63,932 nt of DNA, filler included, from Chrysochromulina tobinii (GCA_001275005.1; 8 parts of 8 records of this genome joined end to end with filler, not necessarily neighbours in it), one strand, 5' to 3'. Positions 8,396-57,610 are shown, counted from the first letter of the whole stretch. The notes: generated by a model from the sequence alone, not told the origin. Made by a program: numbers and translations.

Positions 8396-8821
8396 CGCTT
8401 CACTCAGCGCAAGTGCCCCTGATGAGGCAGGCAATCAATGGGGGCATCAGATGGGCTGTCTGAGGCCCATCAGATGACAATCAGATCTGAGGCCCACCAG
8501 ATGACAATCAGATCTGAGGCGCACACAAGATCGCCCTCCCTCCGAATCTGATTGAGCTCTGATGGAGCTCTAATTGTCTCTGCGTCATCAGGTGTACAAG
8601 TGTGTCATTACCCCAACCGGCCGACCGAGACGGCGCGTTTCGTCAAGCGCTCCCCACTGCACGAGTACCCATACGGTACGGACTGTATCTCAGTACTCTT
8701 CATCGCTGCTCTCATCACTGTGCTCTCCCACCCGGGGGCACTCATGCACTTCTGCTCGCTCGTCCGGTCCGGGCGGCGCGGCAGCAGGGGGGGCGGCGGC
8801 CAAACGAACGCGATTGGAGGT

Positions 8822-27242: not shown

Positions 27243-30200
27243 CTACCAGGGAGATTCTGCGAGCTGCCGGGGAGATTCTGCGAGCTCCAGGGCGCCACGT
27301 CCGTGAAGCTCCTGCGCCGGCTCGGCGTCTGCGTCGGAGTGCTTGATGACGGGGACGTCCCGGCGCCCCCTCCTTCCCCCCCGGTGCCGCACAGGGCCGT
27401 CCTCGTCTGACGAATCCGGTTTGGGCAGTGACGAATCTGTCGGTCCCGTGGGCTTTTTCCGCCTTCCCCCGAGCAACCCCCCCAGCCGCCGTCGAGGCTC
27501 CGCTGCGGCCGTATGGTGGTTCGTATGGTGGCTCGCGTAACTGTTCGGTGAGGCAGCGGCACTCGCGGCGGCGCTCCCCATCGGGTTCCCAATCGGGTCG
27601 TTCTCCTTATCGCGCTCCCCACTCGCCCCGCGCCGGCCGGCGCCGCTGCCTTCACGCTTCGATGGCTTGCCTGTCTTCACAGGCGCCGGCGCGAGCTGCG
27701 CAGGCGCATTCGCGTTGGATACGCCGTTGGCGATCTGGACGGGCGCGGCCGAGGGCTTGGGTGCGAGCGTCTTGTTGAGCGGCGCCACCTCCACGCTCGC
27801 CTTCTGAGGGAGGAGCTCGTCGGGGAATTCGTCAATGACGAGGGGTCCATCCCAAGATCTCCCAATCGATCTCCCCATCGGGAGCGACCCCATCGGGCGA
27901 GGCCTCGCCGCCTCCGCCCGTGCGTCTCTCTTGGCTGCCTTCAGCTGCCCGACCGCATCATGCACCGCCGGGGCAAGCGGCGGGGGGCAGCGGCGGGGGG
28001 CGGCGCCGGGGGGCGAGAGAGCGCTCAGCTCCAGATTCGTGGTGACCGACGAGGTGCCATCTCCGCGAATCTCGATCTGGAGCCTCGGAGATGGCAGGAC
28101 CCGAATCTCAACCCGCGGCGTGGTCACGATCTGCATCGTCGGCGCTCGAGCGAGCGAGTCAGCACGCGCCTCGGAGGCCGCCGCCCGCGCCGCCGCCGCT
28201 GCGTCTCGCGCGCGCCGCGCGCTGAGCGAGCCATCTCTATCCCCATCCCCATCCACGGAGGTCGCGGCGGCGGCGGCGGCCGAGGCGGCGGCGGCGGCCG
28301 CGGCGTTGGGGAGGCTCGTGAAGATGGGTGCTGTGAAGGTGGGTGCTGTGAAGGTGGGTGCGGCAGCAGTTTCTGCTTCGACCACTGGCGCCTTCACCGG
28401 CGCCATCGAGGGCGCCGTCGCGGGCGCCGTCGCCGTCGCGGGCGCCGTCGCCGTCGCGGGCGCCGTCGCCGTCGCGGGCGCCGCTGGGGACTGTTTGAGC
28501 GGCGGCGGGGCGGACGGTTTGGCGCGCGGCTCAAAGGTCTTCATGAGGGCCTCGCGCGCCCGCGCCGAGTTGAGCGCCTCGTGCACCACCGCTGGGGAGG
28601 CTGCCCGTGCCGCGGCAGCCACCGCCACGGGCGGCGGCGGGAGCGGCGGCATGTCGACCGGTAACACGGCCTTGTTGCTCGGCGGCTGCGGCGCCAGTGA
28701 GGCCGTAGCAGGCAGCGACGGCGGCGCGAGCTGCAGGCTCTTTTGCAGATGGGCCCTGGCGCGCGCGCTGTCGGTCGGCTCATTGACGACCGCGGGTGAG
28801 CCTGCCTGGGAGACCGCCTGCACGGTGGATGGCGAGTGGTGAGTGACGAGGCAATCAGGACGCAATCAGGACGCGATCAGGACGCGATCAAGAGGCCATC
28901 AAGAGGCCATCAAGAGGCGATCAAGAGGCGATCAAGAGGCCATCAAGACGCAATCAGGATGCAATCAGGAGGCCATCAAGAGGCCATCAAGAGGCCAAGA
29001 ACGGCACTCGCCTGAACGGTCGAAGTCGCTCGCTCCGACCAGACACCGTCCCGTTCGGTCCAGCCCGACGCCTCCGAGCTCTGGACCGATGGCGGCGCGT
29101 ACCTGTGGGGAAAGGGGAGGACGCGCGCGCCGTGGTGAGCACTTGCATGCGCCCCCCCCAAAGCTCGAGCGCTCTGGACCGATGGCGGCGCATACCTCGA
29201 GGTGCGCTTGGTCGCAGCTGCCGCCACGGCCGCCGCGAGGGCCGCCATACCTACCCCTAGGGCGGTGGGACCATCCTTGACAGGCGCGGGAGTCACGCAC
29301 GCAGTGCCCTTCGCGGGCGCCGTGTCGGGCGCGCTGCTCTTCAGCGGGAGGGGTGGCACAGCCGGGTGGCGAGCTTGTGGAGGCGGCGCCCTCGTCGGCA
29401 ACGGCGGCGGCAAGGCGACGATAGGTGGCGGCACCGGAGGTGGTGGCACAGCTGCCACAGACACGGCGCTGGCTGCCACGGCAGCAGGCGCGCCTGCGCC
29501 CGCCGCCCTCGCCTCCGCCGCCCTTGCCTCCGCCGCCCTTGCCTCAGCCGCCCTTGCCTCCGCCGCCCTTGCCCGAACCTCAGCGGCTGCCGCACGCTGC
29601 TCGGCGGCGGCGCGGGCGGTCTCAGAGCCAGCACGTTCACGCCTCGCCACCTCCGCCTCCGCCATCGCCGTGTGCGCCCGCGCCTGCGCCGCCGCTGCGG
29701 CCTCGTGGCCACGCGCCTCGGCCGCCCGCGCCGCCGCCTCTGCCGCCTTCGCCGCCGCCTCTGCTACCATGGCCGCCGCCTCGGCCGCCCGCGCCGCCGC
29801 CTCGGCGAGCTTCGCCTGCTCCTCGAGAACCGAACGCGCTGTGGTGAGCACTTGCATGCAAGGCAGGTCATCAGTGGCAATCAACGTGCCTGCTCCTCGA
29901 GTGCGGAACGCGCTGTGGTGAGCACTTGCATATGCAAGGCAGGTCATCAGTGGCAATCAACGTGCCTGCTCCTCGCGCTCCACAGCACGGCTGACCGCGG
30001 CCTGTGCCTGCTGCTCGGCCGCTTGCGCCGCCTCTGCGCGCTCCGCCGCCGCGCGACTCGCCGCGAGCGCCTCGGCGAGCTCCTGCTTCGTCTTCGTCAG
30101 CTCGGCGGTCGCCGTGAGGTTCGTCAGCTCGGCGGTCGCCGTAAGGTTCGCCACGGCCGCCTTCTCCTTCTTCTCCTTCCGCCGCTGCTGCTGCTCGAGC

Positions 30201-42777: not shown

Positions 42778-44257
42778 CTAATCCTCCTCCTCGTCCTCCT
42801 CCTCGTCGTCCGCGCCACGGCCCGAGCCGCGGAGTCGCTTCGAGCGACGCCGCGACGATCGCACGAATTCGTCCGAATCCCTTGGGACCCAGTTGAGGCT
42901 GCCGTCCGCGTCCAGCTTGACCTGGTAAGGCGCCACAAGGCCCGGCGGCATCGTCTCATCGCGGTACATGAGCGTCAGGACCGTACCCGTCGACCAGTCG
43001 CCCGGCCCTGTCTTGCACTCAACGGATGCGCCGATGCCAAAGCGCAACGCCTCACGCTTCTGCTGGAGGACCTCGGGCGTCTGCAGGCAGCCGTTGAAGC
43101 CCGCCGCGAGCTCGTTAGCATCGAGGTCTTTGCCGATGAAGACGAGCTTCGACTCTCGTCGCTCACCCTCGGCCCACGGATCCTCAAAGGTGCCCTGATG
43201 AGGGAGGCAATCATATGAGGGGAGGCAATCAGAGGTACTCAGAGGTACTCAGAGGTACTCAGAGGTACTCGCACACGAGGATCCCCACAGGCCCTCGCCC
43301 GCGTACCTCCATGATCATATGCACCGCGTGGAAGACAAACCGCTGCTCAGCATGCGCGATCGCGAGCACGCCCTTCATTCGGAAAATGTCTTCGCCACGC
43401 TGCTCAAGGAGCTGACCGATCCATGCTTGCACGAGCTCAAGGTCGAGCTCGCCGAGCTGGACCTTGCGCAGGTGGCGCGCGGCGCTTTGGTCGAGGCTCA
43501 CGCTCTTGATGCGCGCGTCGTGCACGGTCGGCGCCTTGCGAGGGTCCAAAAAGTTTGGGTCTGCCTCGAGGGTACGTTTGAGATCGAAGCCGTGCAGCTG
43601 GAGAACGGAGTCTACGGAGACGTTGGAATGTGAACAGCGCAGGATGGGCGCGAAGCCGTTGATGCCTCGCAGGCGCGCCTCGATGCGCTCAAGGTCGCGC
43701 TCCGTGACGAGATCCGTCTTGTTGAGCAGCAGCCGGTCGGCAAACACGACCTGCTGCTTCGCCTCACTGATCGCGCCCTCCGGCTTCTTCTCGTTCAGGC
43801 GCTTCTCAATGTGCTTCGCATCGACGAGCGTGACGACGCCGTCGATGCGCGCAAATTTCCGAATGATGGGATCCACGAGGAAGGTTTGCACGACGGGCGA
43901 CGGGTCCGCCATCCCCGTCGTCTCGATGATGATCCCGTCCAGGACGAGCTTTCCCGAGTCAATCCGACTGGCGAGCTTGTGCAGCACCTTGACCAGATCC
44001 GTGCGCACGGTGCAGCACATGCAGCCGTTGAGTACCTCGAAGATCTCCTCGCCGGTTTGGAATTTGGTGTTTTTCGCCAAGAGCTTGTCGTCGATCGCCA
44101 CCGCGCCAAACTCGTTTTCAATGATGGCAATCTTCTTCCCGTGCGTTGCGGTGAGAATGTGATTGAGGAGCGTGGTTTTGCCGCTTCCGAGGAAGCCGGT
44201 GAGCACCGTCACAGGTACTCGGTCGCACGCCACCTCCTCCTCGTCGCACGATGCCAT
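42778..44257 (-). CDS. CobW/COG0523 metal-binding GTPase with extra C-terminal domain; one intron at 43306-43195
   Basis: GFLGSGKTT, IIENEFG, GCMCC, IETTGMADP, LLNKTD, CobW_C motif FRMKG...FHAVH; in-frame splice to ESKLVFIGKDL. Confidence 0.92.
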
Positions 44258-48443: not shown

Positions 48444-48838
48444 NNNNNNNNNNNNNNNNNNNNNNNNNNNNNNNNNNNNNNNNNNNNTTAATTAATTAAN
48501 NNNNNNNNNNNNNNNNNNNNNNNNNNNNNNNNNNNNNNNNNNNACTCAGTACTTGTGTAGACCGAGGGGAGCGGAGCCGTCCGTCGAGACGGTGGTGGAG
48601 TGAGCGTGGGGGGACCGCGAAGAAACTGAAAACTGAACACGACGCACCTGCCAGCGGTTCACGAAGTGTACGCTCGACTAGTCTATCCAAAATCTCGGCG
48701 CCATGCTGTTCCCCACACGTCTGTGAAATAGAGTCGCCGGGGTCGACCCGCGTAAGAGTCCCTCGGTTTTTTGCTGACCCAACGTGCTCATGTTTCCCGT
48801 GATCGGCTTCGTTCACGGGATTCTTATCTCGCCTCGCG

Positions 48839-51800
48839 ATGCCGACAGTCCTTCTTGCTGCCCTCGCCGCCGCGCTCGCGGACGCGCCGCCGCGCATCTT
48901 CGACCACATTTCGGTCACGGCGAGCGCCTCGTGGGCCAACGATCCCATCATCGAAGCGGCATCACTTCTCTACGGCGAGCTCGGCGGCCGAGGCGTGGCG
49001 TGGTTCCTCAAGGGCGTCGCAGGCCAACCCGGTTGTGAGGACGTGCGCTGCGCCGCCAGGGCGATCAGTTCGCTGAGCTTGCCGCCGCTTCAGGTCCGTG
49101 CGCTCGGCGCCGCTCTGGCCGCGCGGGTGGAGGCGCCCAAGGTGGAGGCCTGGGCGCAGCTCGCGGCCGCCGTGCCGGGCTCCTCACCCGACCGTGGAGC
49201 GCTCGCGCACGCGGCCGTGTGGCTCTGCACGTGCGACGGGCGCATCCACGTGGAGGTGGAGGATGCGCTGGCGGCGCTGGCAGTGCTCGTTGACTCACCC
49301 GAGGAGTGCCGCGAGGCGAGCGCCAGCGCCGTGCCCGCGGCGCTCGACCACGCGTTCGACAACGACAACGCGGGCGGACGCAGGAGCGCGGACGCCATTT
49401 CCACAGCTCCGTTACTGATCGCGTACGTCGACCCGCACGCCGGGGCTGCGATGGGCGCGGCAATGGCGGCGCTACTCGCCGTGCCACCCGCCACCGCGCG
49501 CATCGTGCTGCGCTACCGTCCCTCGGCCGCCGTTAGCCCGGTGCCTCTTCAGGGCTTTGGGACGGTCGTGCGGCTGAAGGCGTCCGAGTACAAGGTGGTG
49601 GACGACCGCGGCGTGGAGGCGGCGGCCGATGCGGCCGACGAGAGCGACGACGATGCCGTCGAGGGCGAACCGGCCGGAGGAGACGAGGCGCCTTCGTTTC
49701 TGCTGCGCAAGCGAGCGGGTGAGCCGCTCGTCGCGTGCATGCTGATTGCCTCCCTCATTGCGAGCGGGTGAGCCGCTCGTAGTTGCGACGGCGGTCACGC
49801 GAGTGCATGCTGATTGCCTCCCTCATTGCACGCAGGTGAGCCGCTCGTTGGCGACGGCGGCGACGGCTCGAGCCTCTCCGCCGCACGGCTTGGCGCTCTG
49901 AGCATGCAGGCGGCGGTGGCGGTGCTGCGCGCGCGCCGGCCGTTACCGACGCTCCGGGACGTGAGCGGGTTGCTCCCAAGCCTCGCACGAGCGCTCTCGC
50001 GCATTAATTTGAGCTCACCTGCCCACGAACCCCTCGTACGCTCGCTCGTGACGAACCCCTCGTGACGAACCCCTCGTGACGAACCCCTCGTGACGAACCC
50101 CTCGTGACGAACCCCTCGTGACGAACCCCTCGTGACACACTCCGAGCAATGCTGCTACCAGCATGCTAACTGCCGCTGATGGCCTGCCTGATTACCTCCC
50201 TCATCAGGTACGCTCGCTCATCGCGATCCGGCCGCTTTTGCAATCAGCATGCAACTCACTGCTGCTCAACGGCTTACCAATCGACCTCACCCGTGCGGAC
50301 TTGGCCCCTCTGATTACCTCTGATTACCTCTGATTACCTCTGATCACCTCTGATTACCTCTGATTACCTCATGCGTGTGGCCTTGGCGCCTCGAGCGCGC
50401 CTCCCATCCCACCACCCGCGATTGCATGCTGAGCGCACCTCCCATCCCTCCCTCATTGCATGCAGGTGCGGACTTGGTGCAGCACACGATGAAGCTCGTG
50501 CTCACCGAGGCGAACACAGCGGCCCAGCTCGTGCAGCTCGGCTTGCGCCCAACTGTCGTGAGCGCGCTGCTCACGACGGCGCCCCCGCCCCCGGTGCGCA
50601 TCGACGCCCGCAGCCTCGAGAGCGCCACGCTCTGGCTGAGTGACCTGAGCGCGCCTAATTTGGATGGGGGCTTCAAAACATGGCCCTCGGATCTAAGCTC
50701 GGCGCTTAAAAAGGGCCTTCGGGGCGCGCGCCAGTTCACAAGGCATAACCTGTTCACAGCCATCTTCGCCTTCGACCCGGCGACGATGCACGGCGCGCGC
50801 ACGGCCGGCTACGTGGCGACCATCCTGAAGCGGAGCGCGCCTCTTCGGATTGGGGTGCTTGCTCGCTCGGCGGACGGTAACGGAGATTCCAATCTGGCCA
50901 CGCGCGCTCTCGCGGGCACTTGCATGCTGATGGCCCCTGATTGCCCCCCTCCCACCCTCCCTAACTAGGTAGCGGAGATTCCAATCTGGCCACGCGCGCT
51001 CTCGTGCACTTGCATGCGGTGGGGGGCAAGGCGGCACTGATCGCTTTCCTGCGCACCCTCGGCGCACGGGCGGGGGCGGCAGTTGGAGCGCCGCGGCGGG
51101 CACCCGAGCTGGCGGCAGCACCGGTGGACGCAGCCGAGGAGGGGGACGCGGCGGGGGCGGACGAAAGTGATGCGCTGGCTGCAGCAAACACGGACGGCGA
51201 CGCGCAGGCGGAGGCGGGGAGCGCTCAGGACGACGCGACGACGGTGGCCGAGGGCGATGCGCGTCGTACTGAGCGTGCCTCCGCTGTTCTTGAGCCGACG
51301 GTCCCACGGCAGGTGCTCGTGATTGCATGCTGATTGCCTCCCTCATTACCAGCTCTTGAGCCGACGGTCCCACGGCAGGTGCTCGTGATTGCATGCTGAT
51401 TGCCTCCTTCATTACCAGCTCTTGAGCCGACGGTCCCACGGCAGGTGCTCGTGGACGCTGTGGCGGCGGCGCTCGAGGTCATCGCGGGGGGCGCCAAGGG
51501 GGGAGGAGGAGGCAAGAAGGGCAAGAAGCGCAAGGCCAAGTCGGCGGCGGCAGAGGAGGAGGCGACGGCGTCGGCAGGCTCGGAGGCGGCGAATGCCACG
51601 GACGGTAGCCGCCCGGCACGGCGCGCGGAGGAGGTCCTCCTGCAGCTCGGCATGATCGGCGAAGGCATAGGGCTCGAGGCCGCCGAGCGTGTGGAAGCCA
51701 TGGACTTGGCCGCCAACCTGCTCGGGCTACCTGCCTCCCTACCCGTCGCCCTTCTCAACGGACTGGTGCTGATCCCCGAGGCGCCCATTACGGCGCTCTC

Positions 51801-54800
51801 AGGCGAGGCGCTCTGGGGGGAGATGATTGCACTTGCAATCACGAGAGAAGCTCAGGTGATTGCATCCCTCATCAGGCGGCGATCGTGCAGTACGATTGGC
51901 CGTCTGATTGCGTCTGATTGCGTCTGATTGCGTCTGATTGCGCTCACGAGAGAAGCTCAGTTTGTCCGTGCGCTCATCGAGGAGGGCGCCCTGATGATTG
52001 CCTGTGATGGCCTCTGAGGACCTCTAATCGCCACTGTCATCAGGTTGTCCGTGCGCTCATCGAGGAAGGTGCCCTGAGCGATGGCGCCAACCTTACCGGC
52101 ACCGAGGCGACGGCGAGATCGGGCGAGATGCATAGTGCGAGATCGGGCGAGCTCCATAGTGCGCTGCTCGAGGTGCTCATGTCAAGGGGGAAGGTGGCGC
52201 CCTTTTATTCTGCACAGCTCGCAGTAGCTGCCAAGGAGGAGACTGTGCGCGATGCCATCCGTGCGGCGGGGGCGGCGGCGGGTGGAGAGGCGGATGGGCA
52301 GGCAGCGCCGTATTGGGCGGATGGGCAGGCAGCGGCGAGCGGCAAGGCGTCTGCGGCAGCAGAGGCGACCCAGTTGGCGGGAGTGGTACGCATGCACGGG
52401 GAGCGATTGGATTGGCGAGCGCTTGCATGCTGATGGCTTCTTAATGGCTTCTGATTGCCCTCCTCCTACCCTCCCTAATTAGGTACGGGTCCTCGAGGAG
52501 CGCGTATGGAATCCCGAGTCGCCTTCGAATGTGCATGCCGACTCGCGCCGACTGCATGCACGCCGGCTGGTGCTCAACCCTAATTTGGAACGCTGTGCTC
52601 GAGAGGGGAGCTGCCTCGAGATTGCGGGGATAGGGGATGGCGCCGCGCTGCACTTGGTTGCGATCGTCGATCCTCTCACGGTGCAAGCGCACAAGATAGC
52701 TGCCCTGCGGATCGCATGCTGATTACCTCCCTCATTACCTCGGCAGGTGCACGCGCACAAGATAGCTGCCCTGCTGATCGCTCTGCGGGAGGAGATGCAT
52801 GCACGCGTGACGCTCCTCCTCGCACCGAAATCTCCGCCGAGCTCCGACGATCTCGCCGAAGGCGCCGTGATGGGCAGCCTTTGGTCCCCCGAGCCATCCG
52901 CTGCCTCGATGCCCCTCGATGCCTTCCACAGGTGATTGCTCTGGATTGCTCTGGATTGCTCTGGATGGCTCTTGATTGCGCATGATTGCGCATGATTGCT
53001 CTTGATGGACCCTTGATGGCTTTTGATGGGATGGGCACGTCTCTCTCTATCTCTCTCTCCGCGTTCCACAGCTTCGCCGTGCAGCTCGATCCGCTCAAGA
53101 CGGCGCCTCCCGCGGCCACCTTTGAGATGTTTCGGCCGAGGGCGCCGCAGACGCTCACGCTCACGCCCGAGGCGCCACCAGGTGATTGCATCTGATTGCG
53201 TCTGATTGCGTCCCTCATCAGACGCTCACGCTCCGCCCGAGGCGCCACCAGGTTGGGTGATGACGATCTCCGCCGCGAGCTCCGACCTCGACAATCTGCG
53301 GCTGCACACGCTACAGTCCAGCCAGTCCGTGCATGCAGCCTACTCGCTCAGCGCCTTGCTTGTCACCGGAAAGTGTGTGGATCGCTCGGGGGGTGGTGTC
53401 GGCGGTGCCAAGGGCGGCGGCGGCGGCGGCGGCGGCGGCGGCAAGAAGGCAGCTCATGGCAAGAAGGGTAAGCAGCAGCGGCGGTGGCGAGGGAGCACTG
53501 ATGACCTCTCTAATTACCTCTGATGGCCTCTCTAATTACCTCTGATGGCCTCTCTAATTACCTCTAATGGCCTCTCTAATTACCTCTGATGGCCTCTCTA
53601 ATTACCTCTGATGGCCTCTGCACGACTCTGAGGGTGGCCAACACTGATTGCCCCTTTCATCAGGCAAGCGGCGGCGCGAGATGACCGAAGCGGATGCGGA
53701 TGGGCACGCCGCCTCCGCCGGAGGGAATGCATGCACAGCGGCGGCCCTCGAGCTGCATCGGGCGCTCGGTACGGCGCTCACTACGGCGCGAGCTCCGACG
53801 GCCGAGATGGGCGCGAGCCGCGATCTCGTCAATCTCGTCAATCTCGTCCACGCGCCCGCTTCGGATACCCTCGTCATCGGCTCCGAGTATGCGCTGCACC
53901 CCGACTGCACCCCGATCGACCTCTGGCATGTCTCGGCGCATGCACGTGCTCACCACGGCGCCCTGCCCCCCCCCTCCCCACAGGTACTTTCAATTGCAGG
54001 CGCCGGGGCCTGGGCTGTGGTCAATCTCGCTCGCCTCCGGCGCCGAGCTCCTGAGCGCCCGCCACGGCGCCGCTACAGGCGCCCGCTACGGCGCCGCCGT
54101 CCCGGGCAGCCGTTACGCCGCGCCTCCGGCCCGCGCCCTCCCCGTGCCGCTCCTCTCGTATACCGGTGCGACGCTCGACATTCTCGTCGGCGCAGACCCA
54201 AATCATGGCTTGAGCACACGCACCACCGCCGCCCCGGCTCTCGCCGCCGCCCCCGCCTCCGCCGCCGCCGGTACGGCGCTCGACGAAACAGTCCACATCT
54301 TCTCCCTCGCATCGGGGCTGCTCTATGAGCGCTTCCTACGCATCATGATGAAGACGGCCGTTGAGCGCGCGAGCCGCCCACTGAAGTTTTGGATCCTTGG
54401 CAACTTCCTCTCGCCCGCCTTCCGTCACGCTGTGAACAGCGGCGCGCTCGCAACGGCCGTTGGCGCTCAGGTGATTGCATCCCTCATCAGGTGGCGATCG
54501 TGCTCTACGATTGGCCGCCTGAGTGCGTCTGAGTGCGCCCGAGTGCGTCTGATTGTGGATGATTGCGTCCCTCATCAGGTGGCGATCGTGCAGTACGATT
54601 GGCCGTCTCACCTGCGAGAGCAGACGGAGAAGCAGCGGCTCATCTGGGGGTACAAGATCCTGTTTCTCGACGTGCTCTTCCCACAGGTGAAAGGCGATGA
54701 TTGCGATGGAGTCCGACGAATCTCCGATGAATCTCCGATGGATCTCCGACGAATCTCCGATGGGCTGTCTCGTCCTCACCTTGCCTTCATCGCAGTCGCT

Positions 54801-56125
54801 CCGCAAGATCATCTTCGTCGAGGAGCTGATTGCCTCTTGATTACCTCTGATGAGCCCTAATTGCCTCCGTCGCAGTCGCTCCGCAAGATCATCTACGTCG
54901 ACGCGGATCAAATCGTCCAGGGCGACCTCGCAGAACTTTGGGATAGGTGATTGCCACGGAAGGACACTAATGGGCACCCTGATTGCCACCCTGATTGCCG
55001 CCCTGATTGCCATCCTGATTGCCATCCTGATCGTCCAACGGGACCTCGCCCCTGATTGCCACCCTGATGACCTCCGATGCTCCCCAATGTGGCACTTCAC
55101 ACCCAACCGAACTTCACACCCAACCGAACTTCACACCCAACCGAACTTCACACCTTTGCGGCAGGCCTCTCCTCGGCGCTCCGGTGGCCATGACGCCCTT
55201 TTGCCGCGCCGACCCAAATATGGCAACCAAGGGCTTCCGCTTTTGGGAGACCGGCTTCTGGGCAGGCGCGCTCGGCGGCAAACCATACCACATCTCCGCG
55301 CTCTTCGTCGCGGATCTGGCCGCCTTCCGATCGATTCGGGCAGCAGGGGGGGCGAGCGCGCCGTCGTGGGCAAGCGAGCAGGGCGTGGGTGACATTTACC
55401 GGTCGACGTATCAGTCGCTCACAGCTGACCCGAGCTCGCTTGCCAACCTCGACCAGGACTTACCCAACTACCTGCAGGGCATGGTGATTGCGTCTGATTG
55501 CGTCTGATTGCGTCCCTCATCAGGACGTACCCAACTACCTGCAGGGCATGGTGATTGCGTCTGACTGCGTCTGATTGCGTCCCTCATCAGGTGCCCATCC
55601 ACTCCTTGCCCGAGGAGTGGCTCTGGTGTGAGTCCTGGTGCGGCAACGCCTCGCAGTCCGCTGCGAAGACGATCGACCTGTGTAACAACCCGATGACCAA
55701 GGAGCCCAAGCTTGAGCAGGCGAGGCACTCTTCATTACCCTTGATTACCCTTGATTGCTCTTAATTAACCCGATGACCAAGGAGCCCAAGCTCGAGCAGG
55801 CGAGGCACTCTTGATTACCCTTGATTACCATTGATTGCTCTTAATTAACCCGATGACCAAGGAGCCCAAGCTTGAGCAGGCGAGGCACTCTTGATTGCTG
55901 TGGATTGCTGTGGATTGCTGTGGATTGCTCTTGATTGTACTTGATTGCGCTTGATTGCTCGGGCAGGCGAGGCGCATCGGAGGGGAGCGCTGGGCCAAGA
56001 TCGACGCCGAGCTCGAAGCCGCCCTCGGGGGGGGAGCCTCCGCCGCGGTAGGTTCTGAAGGTGGCGCTCACGGCGGCGCGAATATGTCACCATCGGCAGC
56101 ACTCATGGAGAAGACGGAGCTCTGA
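48839..56125 (+). CDS. UGGT: UDP-glucose:glycoprotein glucosyltransferase, 18 exons, ~1625 aa
   Basis: Signal peptide; [103 protein letters not shown]-terminal KTEL. Introns 49719-49835, 50036-50207, 50293-50465, 50877-50968, 51313-51444, 51856-52043, 52386-52482, 52681-52746, 52932-53071, 53182-53251, 53468-53663, 53887-53983, 54471-54578, 54687-54875, 54947-55164, 55484-55590 and 55720-55966 (GC-AG) give one continuous frame. Confidence 0.95.
55484..55590 (+). mobile_element. Two copies of the 40-nt intron module GTGATTGCGT(CTGATTGCGT)2CCCTCATCAG around a duplicated exon end
   Basis: Copies at 55484-55523 and 55551-55590, near-identical copy at 53182-53221, and a 20-nt form at 51856-51875 and 54471-54490. 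Mobility is inferred. Confidence 0.55.
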
Positions 56126-56332
56126 CGCACCGCTGGAAACGTGAAAGTGACCACTTACGTTTTACGAGTTCGGAACTTACCCCGTGGGTTATAATCCTCG
56201 GGCCGATCATCTTCTCATAATGACGACAAATGCGTCGTTCCCCAGCCGATGCAGGCTACATTGTTTTGAGCACGGATGTGCGAGCTTGGCTTTTTTGTGA
56301 GAAAAAAAAAGGGTTCACACGAACGAGTCTCC

Positions 56333-57610
56333 ATGGCTTCCCAGAGCCCACAAGACCCATGCATGGACGAAGATACCATGGCAAGGCAGTTCCCGCGCCT
56401 GCAAGGCGCCGGCATGAGCGGCCCACTAGGAGCAGGCGGCTACGCTAGCGGCGAACACATCGGCTCATCGAATGCCCGGGCGCGTGCCGCCGCGAGCATG
56501 AACACGGTCTGCACAGCCACGGAAGTGGAAGCAGTTCTCGACATCGACGCAGTTGAAGTGGAAGCAGTTGATGACATGGACGACTCCATCGAGGTTGAAG
56601 TTGTACTCGTTGACGAGTCCCGGATGGACACAGGCTCCTCGTCGACGCCACGAGTTTCGACAGATGACGTGCAGCACCTCAGGGCGATCAAGGCAAGGGC
56701 TGCCGCGGCAGCGGAGGGGCTGGAGCTGGTGCCGTCGTCGAAGAACCAGACGGGCTTCAAGGGCGTGACCTTGACTCGTGGCAGGTACTATGTGGACGTC
56801 TGTGAGAACGGCATGACGCGCCACCTCGGGGGCTTTGCAACGCGAGAGGAGGCAGCCTTGTGCTATGCAAGGCACATTGGGGCGGAGCGAGCGGCGGCAG
56901 AGGCGGCGAAAGAGAGAGGCGAGGGGCTGAATACGACAAAGCCGCTCACAGCAGATGAGGCCAGGGCTGCCGCGGCAGCGGAGGGGCTGGAGCTGGTGCC
57001 GTCGTCGAAGAACCAGACGGGCTTCAAGGGCGTGACCTTGACTCAGGGCAGGTACAACGTGGACGTCTATGAGAACGGCAAGCAATCACGCAACTTTGGC
57101 GGCTTTGCAACGCCAGAGGAGGCAGCCTTGTGCTATGCAAGGCACCTTGGGGCGGAGCGAGCGGCGGCAGAGGCGGCGAAAGAGAGAGGCGAGGGGCTGA
57201 ATACGACAAAGCCGCTCACAGCAGATGAGGCCAGGGCCGCCGCGGCAGCGGAGGGGCTGGAGCTGGTGCCGTCGTCGAAGAACCAGACGGGCTTCAAGGG
57301 CGTGAACTTGATTGGTGGCAAGTATTACCTGCAAGTCTATAAGAACGGCAAGCAATCACGCAACTTTGGGGGCTTCGCAACGCCAGAGGAGGCAGCCTTG
57401 TGCTATGCAAGGCACCTTGCGACGGAGCGAGCGGCGGCAGAGGCGACGGGTGAGGGGCCACAGCCGCTCACGGTGGATGAGGCGAAAGAGATTGATGGGA
57501 GGCACACCTCAGGACGCGGCTCTCTACAACCCGTTGAACATCCCGCGCCGCCTGGTCCGAGTTGTGAACGTGAACATCCCGCGCCGCCTGGTCCGAGCAG
57601 TTCCGAATAG
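56333..57610 (+). CDS. Protein with three tandem AP2/ERF-like DNA-binding domains
   Basis: TGFKGV...GRY.V....G....LGGFAT.EEAALCYAR three times, ~270-bp near-identical repeats. Confidence 0.8.
   Translation: MASQSPQDPCMDEDTMARQFPRLQGAGMSGPLGAGGYASGEHIGSSNARARAAASMNTVCTATEVEAVLDIDAVEVEAVDDMDDSIEVEVVLVDESRMDTGSSSTPRVSTDDVQHLRAIKARAAAAAEGLELVPSSKNQTGFKGVTLTRGRYYVDVCENGMTRHLGGFATREEAALCYARHIGAERAAAEAAKERGEGLNTTKPLTADEARAAAAAEGLELVPSSKNQTGFKGVTLTQGRYNVDVYENGKQSRNFGGFATPEEAALCYARHLGAERAAAEAAKERGEGLNTTKPLTADEARAAAAAEGLELVPSSKNQTGFKGVNLIGGKYYLQVYKNGKQSRNFGGFATPEEAALCYARHLATERAAAEATGEGPQPLTVDEAKEIDGRHTSGRGSLQPVEHPAPPGPSCEREHPAPPGPSSSE

Follow-up and report, generated by a model that had tools for sequence, protein, structure and literature searches.

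Introns of a haptophyte UGGT gene are likely made and removed through copying errors rather than by a transposon

Haptophyte introners, intron gain at staggered breaks, gain by tandem duplication and the boundary duplications named "mirages" have already been described, as far as the available portions of these reports go (PMC9860276, PMC12130899, PMC3443670, PMC4202315, PMC3087553, PMC4580454). According to the available text, staggered-break gain in Daphnia pulex leaves repeats of 4–12 bp, and the source of most inserts is not known (PMC4202315; PMC3443670). The introner screen, in the accessible part of its description, demands similarity at both intron ends and discards low-complexity families (PMC9860276). 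The origin of new introns without a visible transposon is a long-standing open question. Here we describe the introns of a UGGT gene from Chrysochromulina tobinii (GCA_001275005.1). The analysed DNA, referred to as the window, is a stretch of 63,932 nucleotides (nt) made of 8 joined records, and the scope is one gene within this 64-kb window. The introns are likely made and removed through copying errors and not by a transposon. The preferred mechanism, to which we assign a probability of about 0.5, is microhomology-primed template switching, by which an existing intron is copied into a staggered exon break and introns are both made and remodelled.

The UGGT gene occupies 48839..56125 on the plus strand and consists of 18 exons and 17 introns, with 2,426 nt of intron and 4,878 nt of coding sequence (CDS). 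Removal of the introns gives an open frame of 1,625 amino acids (aa) with a GT24 catalytic domain and an endoplasmic reticulum-retention end, KTEL, and one exon matches solved UGGT chains. The closest named relative is the UGGT of Prymnesium parvum (48% identity over 1,222 columns). Named haptophyte proteins are likewise among the matches of the neighbouring cobW gene, and the source organism is a haptophyte. UGGT was present in six RNA runs, and the junction list was taken from low-depth contigs of four. All 14 RNA joints coincided with predicted introns (1–4, 6–10 and 13–17), each in one to four of the four runs. The 17 junctions of the initial annotation are therefore confirmed by RNA at 14 introns, while introns 5, 11 and 12 have no bridging RNA and are based on the open frame and homology. 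The 17 introns are real spliceosomal introns. Some RNA contigs continue unspliced through introns 14 and 17; these may represent unspliced RNA or DNA and were not used as evidence. In introns 10 (53182–53251) and 14 (54687–54875), RNA joins at the outer AG and an intact inner acceptor is bypassed, which in intron 10 lies 30 nt upstream of the AG in use. This bypassing informs on acceptor choice in the alga.

The claim that most UGGT introns carry a copy of flanking exon sequence held up. Each intron was compared with its own 120-nt empty site (the spliced junction), with 500 randomly drawn parts of the UGGT CDS as the control. The own-site alignment exceeded all 500 in 13 of the 17 introns (p = 0.002), and the likeness was marginal for intron 11 (0.044). 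A looser, end-anchored measure gave at least 10 nt in 12/17 own pairs versus 15/272 cross pairs. The examples quoted at the outset were also present: copies of 12–13 nt in introns 1–3, ~49 nt in intron 4, 35 nt in intron 8 and ~33 nt in intron 10, and triplicated pieces of 34 nt in intron 5 and ~40–46 nt in intron 17. The length of the duplication is site-specific (about 6–49 nt) and is not a fixed short value of 3–9 bp.

Three builds were recognized. In the first (introns 1–4 and 8), a copy of the next exon stands at the intron start and supplies the donor. Intron 1 (49719..49835) has a 13-nt downstream copy, the source of its GT, followed by a filler designated A, a second junction copy and filler A again. 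Intron 2 (50036..50207) has a 12-nt downstream copy, a 14-nt array from the upstream exon end and a filler end CCTCATCAG, and intron 3 (50293..50465) has a 12-nt downstream copy, a branch-point-like 10-nt array and filler A. Intron 4 (50877..50968), whose presence varies in relatives, consists of the ~49-nt downstream copy, again the source of GT, and the filler end CCCTAACTAG; intron 8 (52681..52746), the shortest at 66 nt, consists of its 35-nt downstream copy and filler A. In the second build (introns 10 and 5), a copy of the previous exon stands at the intron end and supplies the acceptor. Intron 10 begins with a whole 40-nt mini-intron, B, and ends with a ~30-nt upstream-exon copy carrying the AG in use, while intron 5 (51313..51444) contains three copies of the 34-nt junction piece and two of filler A, in a 66-nt unit.

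The third build, in which exon pieces lie between repeated fillers, is compound and includes introns 1, 5, 6, 13, 14, 16 and 17. Intron 6 (51856..52043) combines 87 nt from intron 13, ~57 nt copied from the empty site of intron 6 itself, and filler. Intron 13 (54471..54578) has a 20-nt unit B, a ~30-nt downstream copy, an array and a unit-B end, and intron 14 contains a former acceptor, a 26-nt exon copy and extra filler. In intron 16 (55484..55590), two copies of mini-intron B flank a 27–30-nt upstream copy, in a 67-nt unit; the GC-AG intron 17 (55720..55966) contains 2.6 copies of an 80-nt unit that includes the upstream exon end. Among the remaining introns, intron 15 (54947..55164) has 12- and 17-nt arrays and a decayed 20-nt upstream copy, and intron 11 (53468..53663) has a 22-nt array with faint exon likeness. 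Intron 7 (52386..52482) has a terminal repeat of only 5–6 nt and an intron-4-like filler, intron 9 (52932..53071) has intron-17-like 10-nt arrays and a non-significant acceptor repeat of 8–11 nt, and intron 12 (53887..53983) has filler C and no exon copy. Repeats of 10–11 bp in introns are reportedly mentioned in the Emiliania genome paper.

One splice site mostly comes from the duplicated exon, either GT at the start or AG at the end, and the filler supplies the branch point and the other site; splicing restores the protein for this reason. The downstream exon begins with GT in 12 of 17 cases, versus 3.8% of CDS dinucleotides. Both sites come from the repeat only in introns 5 and 17, each of which also contains filler. 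The open 1,625-aa frame and the origins of the sites agree with the initial annotation, which had derived splice sites from either the exon duplicate or a module with the protein restored.

The fillers are branch-point-rich pieces common to other introns and joined at short shared sequences. CTRAY motifs occur 56 times in sense and 10 times in antisense in the 2,426 intron nt, versus 7 times in the 4,878 CDS nt. The last letters of the exon copy are also the first letters of the filler; this junction microhomology is TGCATGC at intron 4 and shorter at introns 5 and 8. The bins containing fillers showed DNA depth far over single-copy, a value not convertible to copy number, and loose ends into unrelated sequence, which together suggest that fillers are present at many loci. 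These repeated fillers, together with the TIR-less haptophyte introners with 4-bp duplications that the available text of PMC9860276 reports, would suit an explanation by short non-autonomous DNA transposons lacking terminal inverted repeats (TIRs), with short duplications that subsequently grew longer or lost their definition. We consider this unlikely. The youngest inserts already carry near-perfect copies of 29 and ~49 nt, one insert brought an exon fragment along, and end-to-end identity with the best partner intron is only 39–64% (0.39–0.64). The introns form several filler groups with at least four unrelated fillers, and distant loci use a telomere-like filler in the same build. No end-to-end intron family was found within the UGGT gene: one end of each intron is site-specific, and similarity at both boundaries is not seen. 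TIRs were absent from the UGGT introns, with a mean longest inverted match of 5.06 for own ends and 5.17 for cross-paired ends. The absence of TIRs and the variable duplication length asserted at the outset are thus both upheld, whereas the lack of TIRs loses its novelty, as TIR-less introners with a splice site from the duplication are known, including in Chrysochromulina sp., in the available part of PMC9860276. Neither transposase-type nor reverse-transcriptase elements were detected among the 29 open reading frames (ORFs) of the window that were scanned, a small sample. The filler patterns gave 0, 0 and 1 matches in viral contigs. One viral-collection contig (L010, 4400–4554) ends in filler C plus an array similar to that of intron 2, and may be host sequence. 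Ten single matches of the filler pattern in prokaryote genomes were taken as chance. The window contains no tRNA, and 48500–56500 gave no Rfam match.

Alleles of relatives were obtained only as translations. Where ORFs are called without regard to introns, an ORF runs across an empty site and continues into the intron at a filled one. Exon 4 joined to intron 4, used as the query, matched 61 members in six clusters, and the 51 listed members were classified. The script assigned 29 as empty, three as filled and 19 as unclear; the printed tails reassigned 12 of the unclear as filled and left 7 uninformative. The result was 29 empty versus 15 filled among the 51 listed ORFs, which are distinct sequences and not necessarily independent samples. 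The empty ORFs comprised 27 from a sister lineage (92–94% in exon 4) and two closer ones (95%). Since 27 of the 29 continue into intron 5, they are genomic. The position is also intronless in the distant orthologue L007 and, taken with the 29 empty relatives, intron 4 would most simply be a gain in the window's lineage. In three filled alleles the form is clean: the exon copy runs up to the letters common with the filler start, and the filler follows. The two close empty alleles carry N, as in the 5' copy of intron 4, versus S in the sister lineage and the window exon, and in the tree they join a filled allele (85/94). An exact excision through recombination of one repeat with the other fits these two alleles, as judged from one residue and a weak tree. 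The reading of empty alleles as pre-gain states agrees with the sister lineage and L007, but empties can also be losses. At 54165..54166, where the window and strain contig L002 are empty, strain contig L001 has a 73-nt intron composed of a 29-nt exon copy with one mismatch and filler C, and the sister lineage also has an intron. Of 11 relative ORFs at this site, likewise distinct but not necessarily independent sequences, nine read through the intron, one is empty and one is uninformative. An exon repeat around a new insert together with a clean empty allele, as in Daphnia, is therefore found at both intron 4 and 54165. In two sister alleles, intron 5 would be only 43 nt long and lack the upstream copy; the idea that long duplications reflect a lower limit of ~66 nt on intron length was dropped on this account.

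Short-read contigs break at repeats of at least 31 nt, and the evidence is without long reads; the copies might thus be suspected to be assembly artefacts. We give this almost no weight. L001 and L002 jointly hold introns 10–15 with the same copies, 15 relative ORFs enter intron 4, and these divergent contigs and many relative ORFs show the same structures with their own substitutions. The copies also differ from their exons, and RNA removes exactly these lengths. Contig L003 does not differ from the window across 6,200 bases and was excluded as independent evidence, and contig L009 was an unrelated match.

The age of the positions was examined with the distant orthologue loci L007 and L008, in which intron boundaries were set for an open frame, without RNA. 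The 13-intron model of L007 has an open frame, a KDEL end and 45% identity to the window UGGT. Only intron 16 among window introns 4–17 shares its position with L007 (1/14). L007 and L008 (91% over 182 residues) have two positions in common and two and three private ones, and P0004 traverses sites 10–14 insert-free and apparently ends in an intron of its own. A copy of the own site occurs in 5/13 L007 introns and 2/4 complete L008 introns, with different fillers. Several of these introns begin with a next-exon copy, and telomere-like CCCTAA arrays, which hold a branch-point consensus, or other simple repeats serve as filler. Telomerase-type filling of these introns is a speculative possibility.

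Ancient, shared positions would have spoken for introns that are all old, with tandem boundary duplications (mirages) making the copies and losses making the empty alleles. This is true in part, as introns 5, 16 and 17 have repeat units (66, 67 and 80 nt, respectively), the position of intron 16 is shared, array lengths vary between strains and losses are probable at two sites. As an account of the whole gene it is improbable. In introns 4 and 8 and the extra intron of L001, the exon copy is the very first sequence, with nothing older on its 5' side. L007 lacks 13 of the 14 comparable positions, and the transfer from intron 13 to intron 6 is impossible by tandem duplication. The position of intron 16 is either old or was reused independently, yet this intron has a near-perfect copy. 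Together with the 43-nt intron 5 alleles, this indicates that many long copies are secondary boundary duplications. The proposal of the initial annotation that introns arose de novo with an exon duplication giving a splice site is supported by intron 4 and the lineage-specific positions; reading every copy as a scar of creation fails, given the compound introns and the shared position of intron 16.

A traceable donor was found for intron 6. Its first 87 nt match the start of intron 13, located 2.6 kb downstream, including a fragment of the conserved exon 14, and the stretch is preceded by a 6-nt match common to the upstream exons of both introns. The insert is closer to intron 13 of L001 than to the window's own intron 13, and read-through of intron 13 in P0001 gives, for 23 residues, the same sequence as read-through of intron 6 in the window. 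A run of 32 nt is identical between the extra intron of L001 and intron 12, which lie ~200 nt apart; the first 8 nt of this run double as the last of the exon copy. Because this filler is widespread, intron 12 is no more than a candidate local donor there.

These features are consistent with the template-switching mechanism. A staggered break in an exon would leave a broken or stalled end that starts extending; this end would depart from the exon at a few bases common with an intron, copy 20–90 nt of it and rejoin at the start of the duplication. Only splice-competent products would survive selection. The same process could later duplicate exon–intron boundaries of pre-existing introns, and an intron would be excised precisely when its two repeats recombine. 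Our guess for the polymerase is a repair enzyme of the Pol theta type.

Target-primed reverse transcription by non-long-terminal-repeat elements has as its hallmarks a variable duplication, a fixed 3' end, microhomology at the 5' junction and a poly(A) or element-specific tail. A reverse transcriptase, for example of a long interspersed nuclear element (LINE), could prime at a nick and copy a spliced-out intron or a pre-mRNA, starting at the 3' end of that RNA, and variable second-strand nicking would give a variable duplication. The first three hallmarks are found at introns 4, 8, 10 and the extra intron of L001, with intron 6 excepted. The fillers have a fixed AG end and a variable 5' end and are all in sense, and a donor within the same gene is compatible with a pre-mRNA template. 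Intron 10 points rather to RNA, since its insert is a complete mini-intron that runs to its own AG, which splicing does not use. On the other hand, the poly(A) or element-specific tail is absent and the inserts end in YAG, the insert of intron 6 stops mid-array, short of the 3' end of its donor, and selection alone can explain the sense orientation. No reverse-transcriptase domain was seen in the small ORF sample described above. We regard this route as possible but rather unlikely. For the staggered-break repair or template switching suggested initially, the junctions fit, the mechanism is inferred, and the reverse-transcriptase route is a live alternative.

Several points weigh against template switching as the common origin. 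Neither the enzyme nor the break has been observed, and target-primed reverse transcription would lead to this anatomy as well. Introns 7, 9 and 12 showed no significant own-site likeness (120-nt empty site versus 500 random CDS stretches). The allele tree of intron 4 has 1 of 22 branches well supported and requires two changes, so the direction rests on the outgroups and one residue. At 54165, loss in the window's lineage is probably a better account than ancestral emptiness. A local donor is apparent from the sequence for intron 6 only, the fillers being at many loci.

Similar structures were observed elsewhere in the window, where true filler clusters outside UGGT number four and none is antisense. 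The intron of the cobW-family gene (43195–43306, minus strand) has a decayed empty-site copy, and its unit number varies in the read-throughs of relatives. A likely GC-AG intron predicted without RNA at 29814–29975 (minus strand) contains a 76-nt unit twice, a short exon-junction piece three times and filler C. Filler clusters at ~8420–8580 and 28848–28997 (both minus strand) are in sense relative to adjoining minus-strand ORFs. Filler-bearing introns are much denser in UGGT than in its window neighbours, a pattern that the seeding of new introns in cis would predict. In-frame tandem duplications within exons (52113–52163 and 52289–52334, also in P0002 and P0176) vary between relatives, which indicates that short duplications are a frequent mutation here. 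An ORF made of 270-nt repeats lies directly 3' of UGGT (56691–57445), and its Pfam scan was negative.

More tentatively, haptophytes may possess a transposon-free cycle in which any intron, including one of the same gene, templates an insert whose exon duplication is long and of variable length, possibly via RNA, and the duplication acts as a built-in undo that allows precise loss. If true, such a cycle would explain fast intron turnover in haptophytes with lineage-specific fillers, invisible to current introner screens. The observations suggest that long duplications render intron gains reversible. Filled and empty alleles, junction microhomologies, one traceable donor and transcript support should make repair- and RNA-templated gain separable by population genomics and a reporter assay.

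The combined build was not found for haptophytes in literature titles and abstract beginnings, mostly non-subscription; the 2025 PNAS datasets and preprint supplements, which possibly list such families, were outside this search. The accessible part of PMC12480563 contains nothing on intron build. The comparisons below refer to the available text of each source. Like tandem genomic duplication at AG|GT, the UGGT introns take splice sites from duplicated exon and leave the protein unchanged; that route derives both sites from the duplicate with nothing foreign, whereas here mostly one site does so and the filler brings the branch point (PMC3443670). Derivation of both sites from AG|GT with no added sequence was not observed. 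Amphioxus mirages likewise have boundary-spanning tandem units of unstable number that leave splicing unaffected, which fits introns 5, 16 and 17, but they arise only where an intron is already present and bring in no sequence from other places (PMC3087553). A boundary-spanning unit with the outer sites spliced is present in introns 16 and 17 with RNA and in intron 5 without RNA. Intron transposition and reverse-transcriptase template switching also produce a new intron homologous to another, but in those models the intron moves as a whole and no long duplication forms, in contrast to the partial introns and long duplications of UGGT (PMC3443670). With introners, namely the TIR-less type of Chrysochromulina sp. 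(PMC9860276) and those of Symbiodinium/Polarella (bioRxiv 10.1101/2020.10.14.339549), the UGGT introns share one carried site, one site from the duplication and repeated filler, as well as occurrence in haptophytes. They differ from them in lacking fixed 4- or 8-nt duplications and families alike near both ends. Given its both-end similarity and low-complexity removal, the introner screen would likely miss introns of the UGGT type, which suggests that introner surveys overlook a class of gains by design. The UGGT introns resemble the gains in Daphnia pulex, with an insert within a direct exon-end repeat, internal repeats in young introns and presence/absence alleles; the UGGT repeats reach ~49 nt, and the fillers match other introns (PMC4202315; PMC3443670). 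What stands out against the known routes is the long variable duplication together with a filler traceable to other introns. The UGGT introns fail the introner tests within the gene and behave as Daphnia-type break-repair gains with copied-intron filler.

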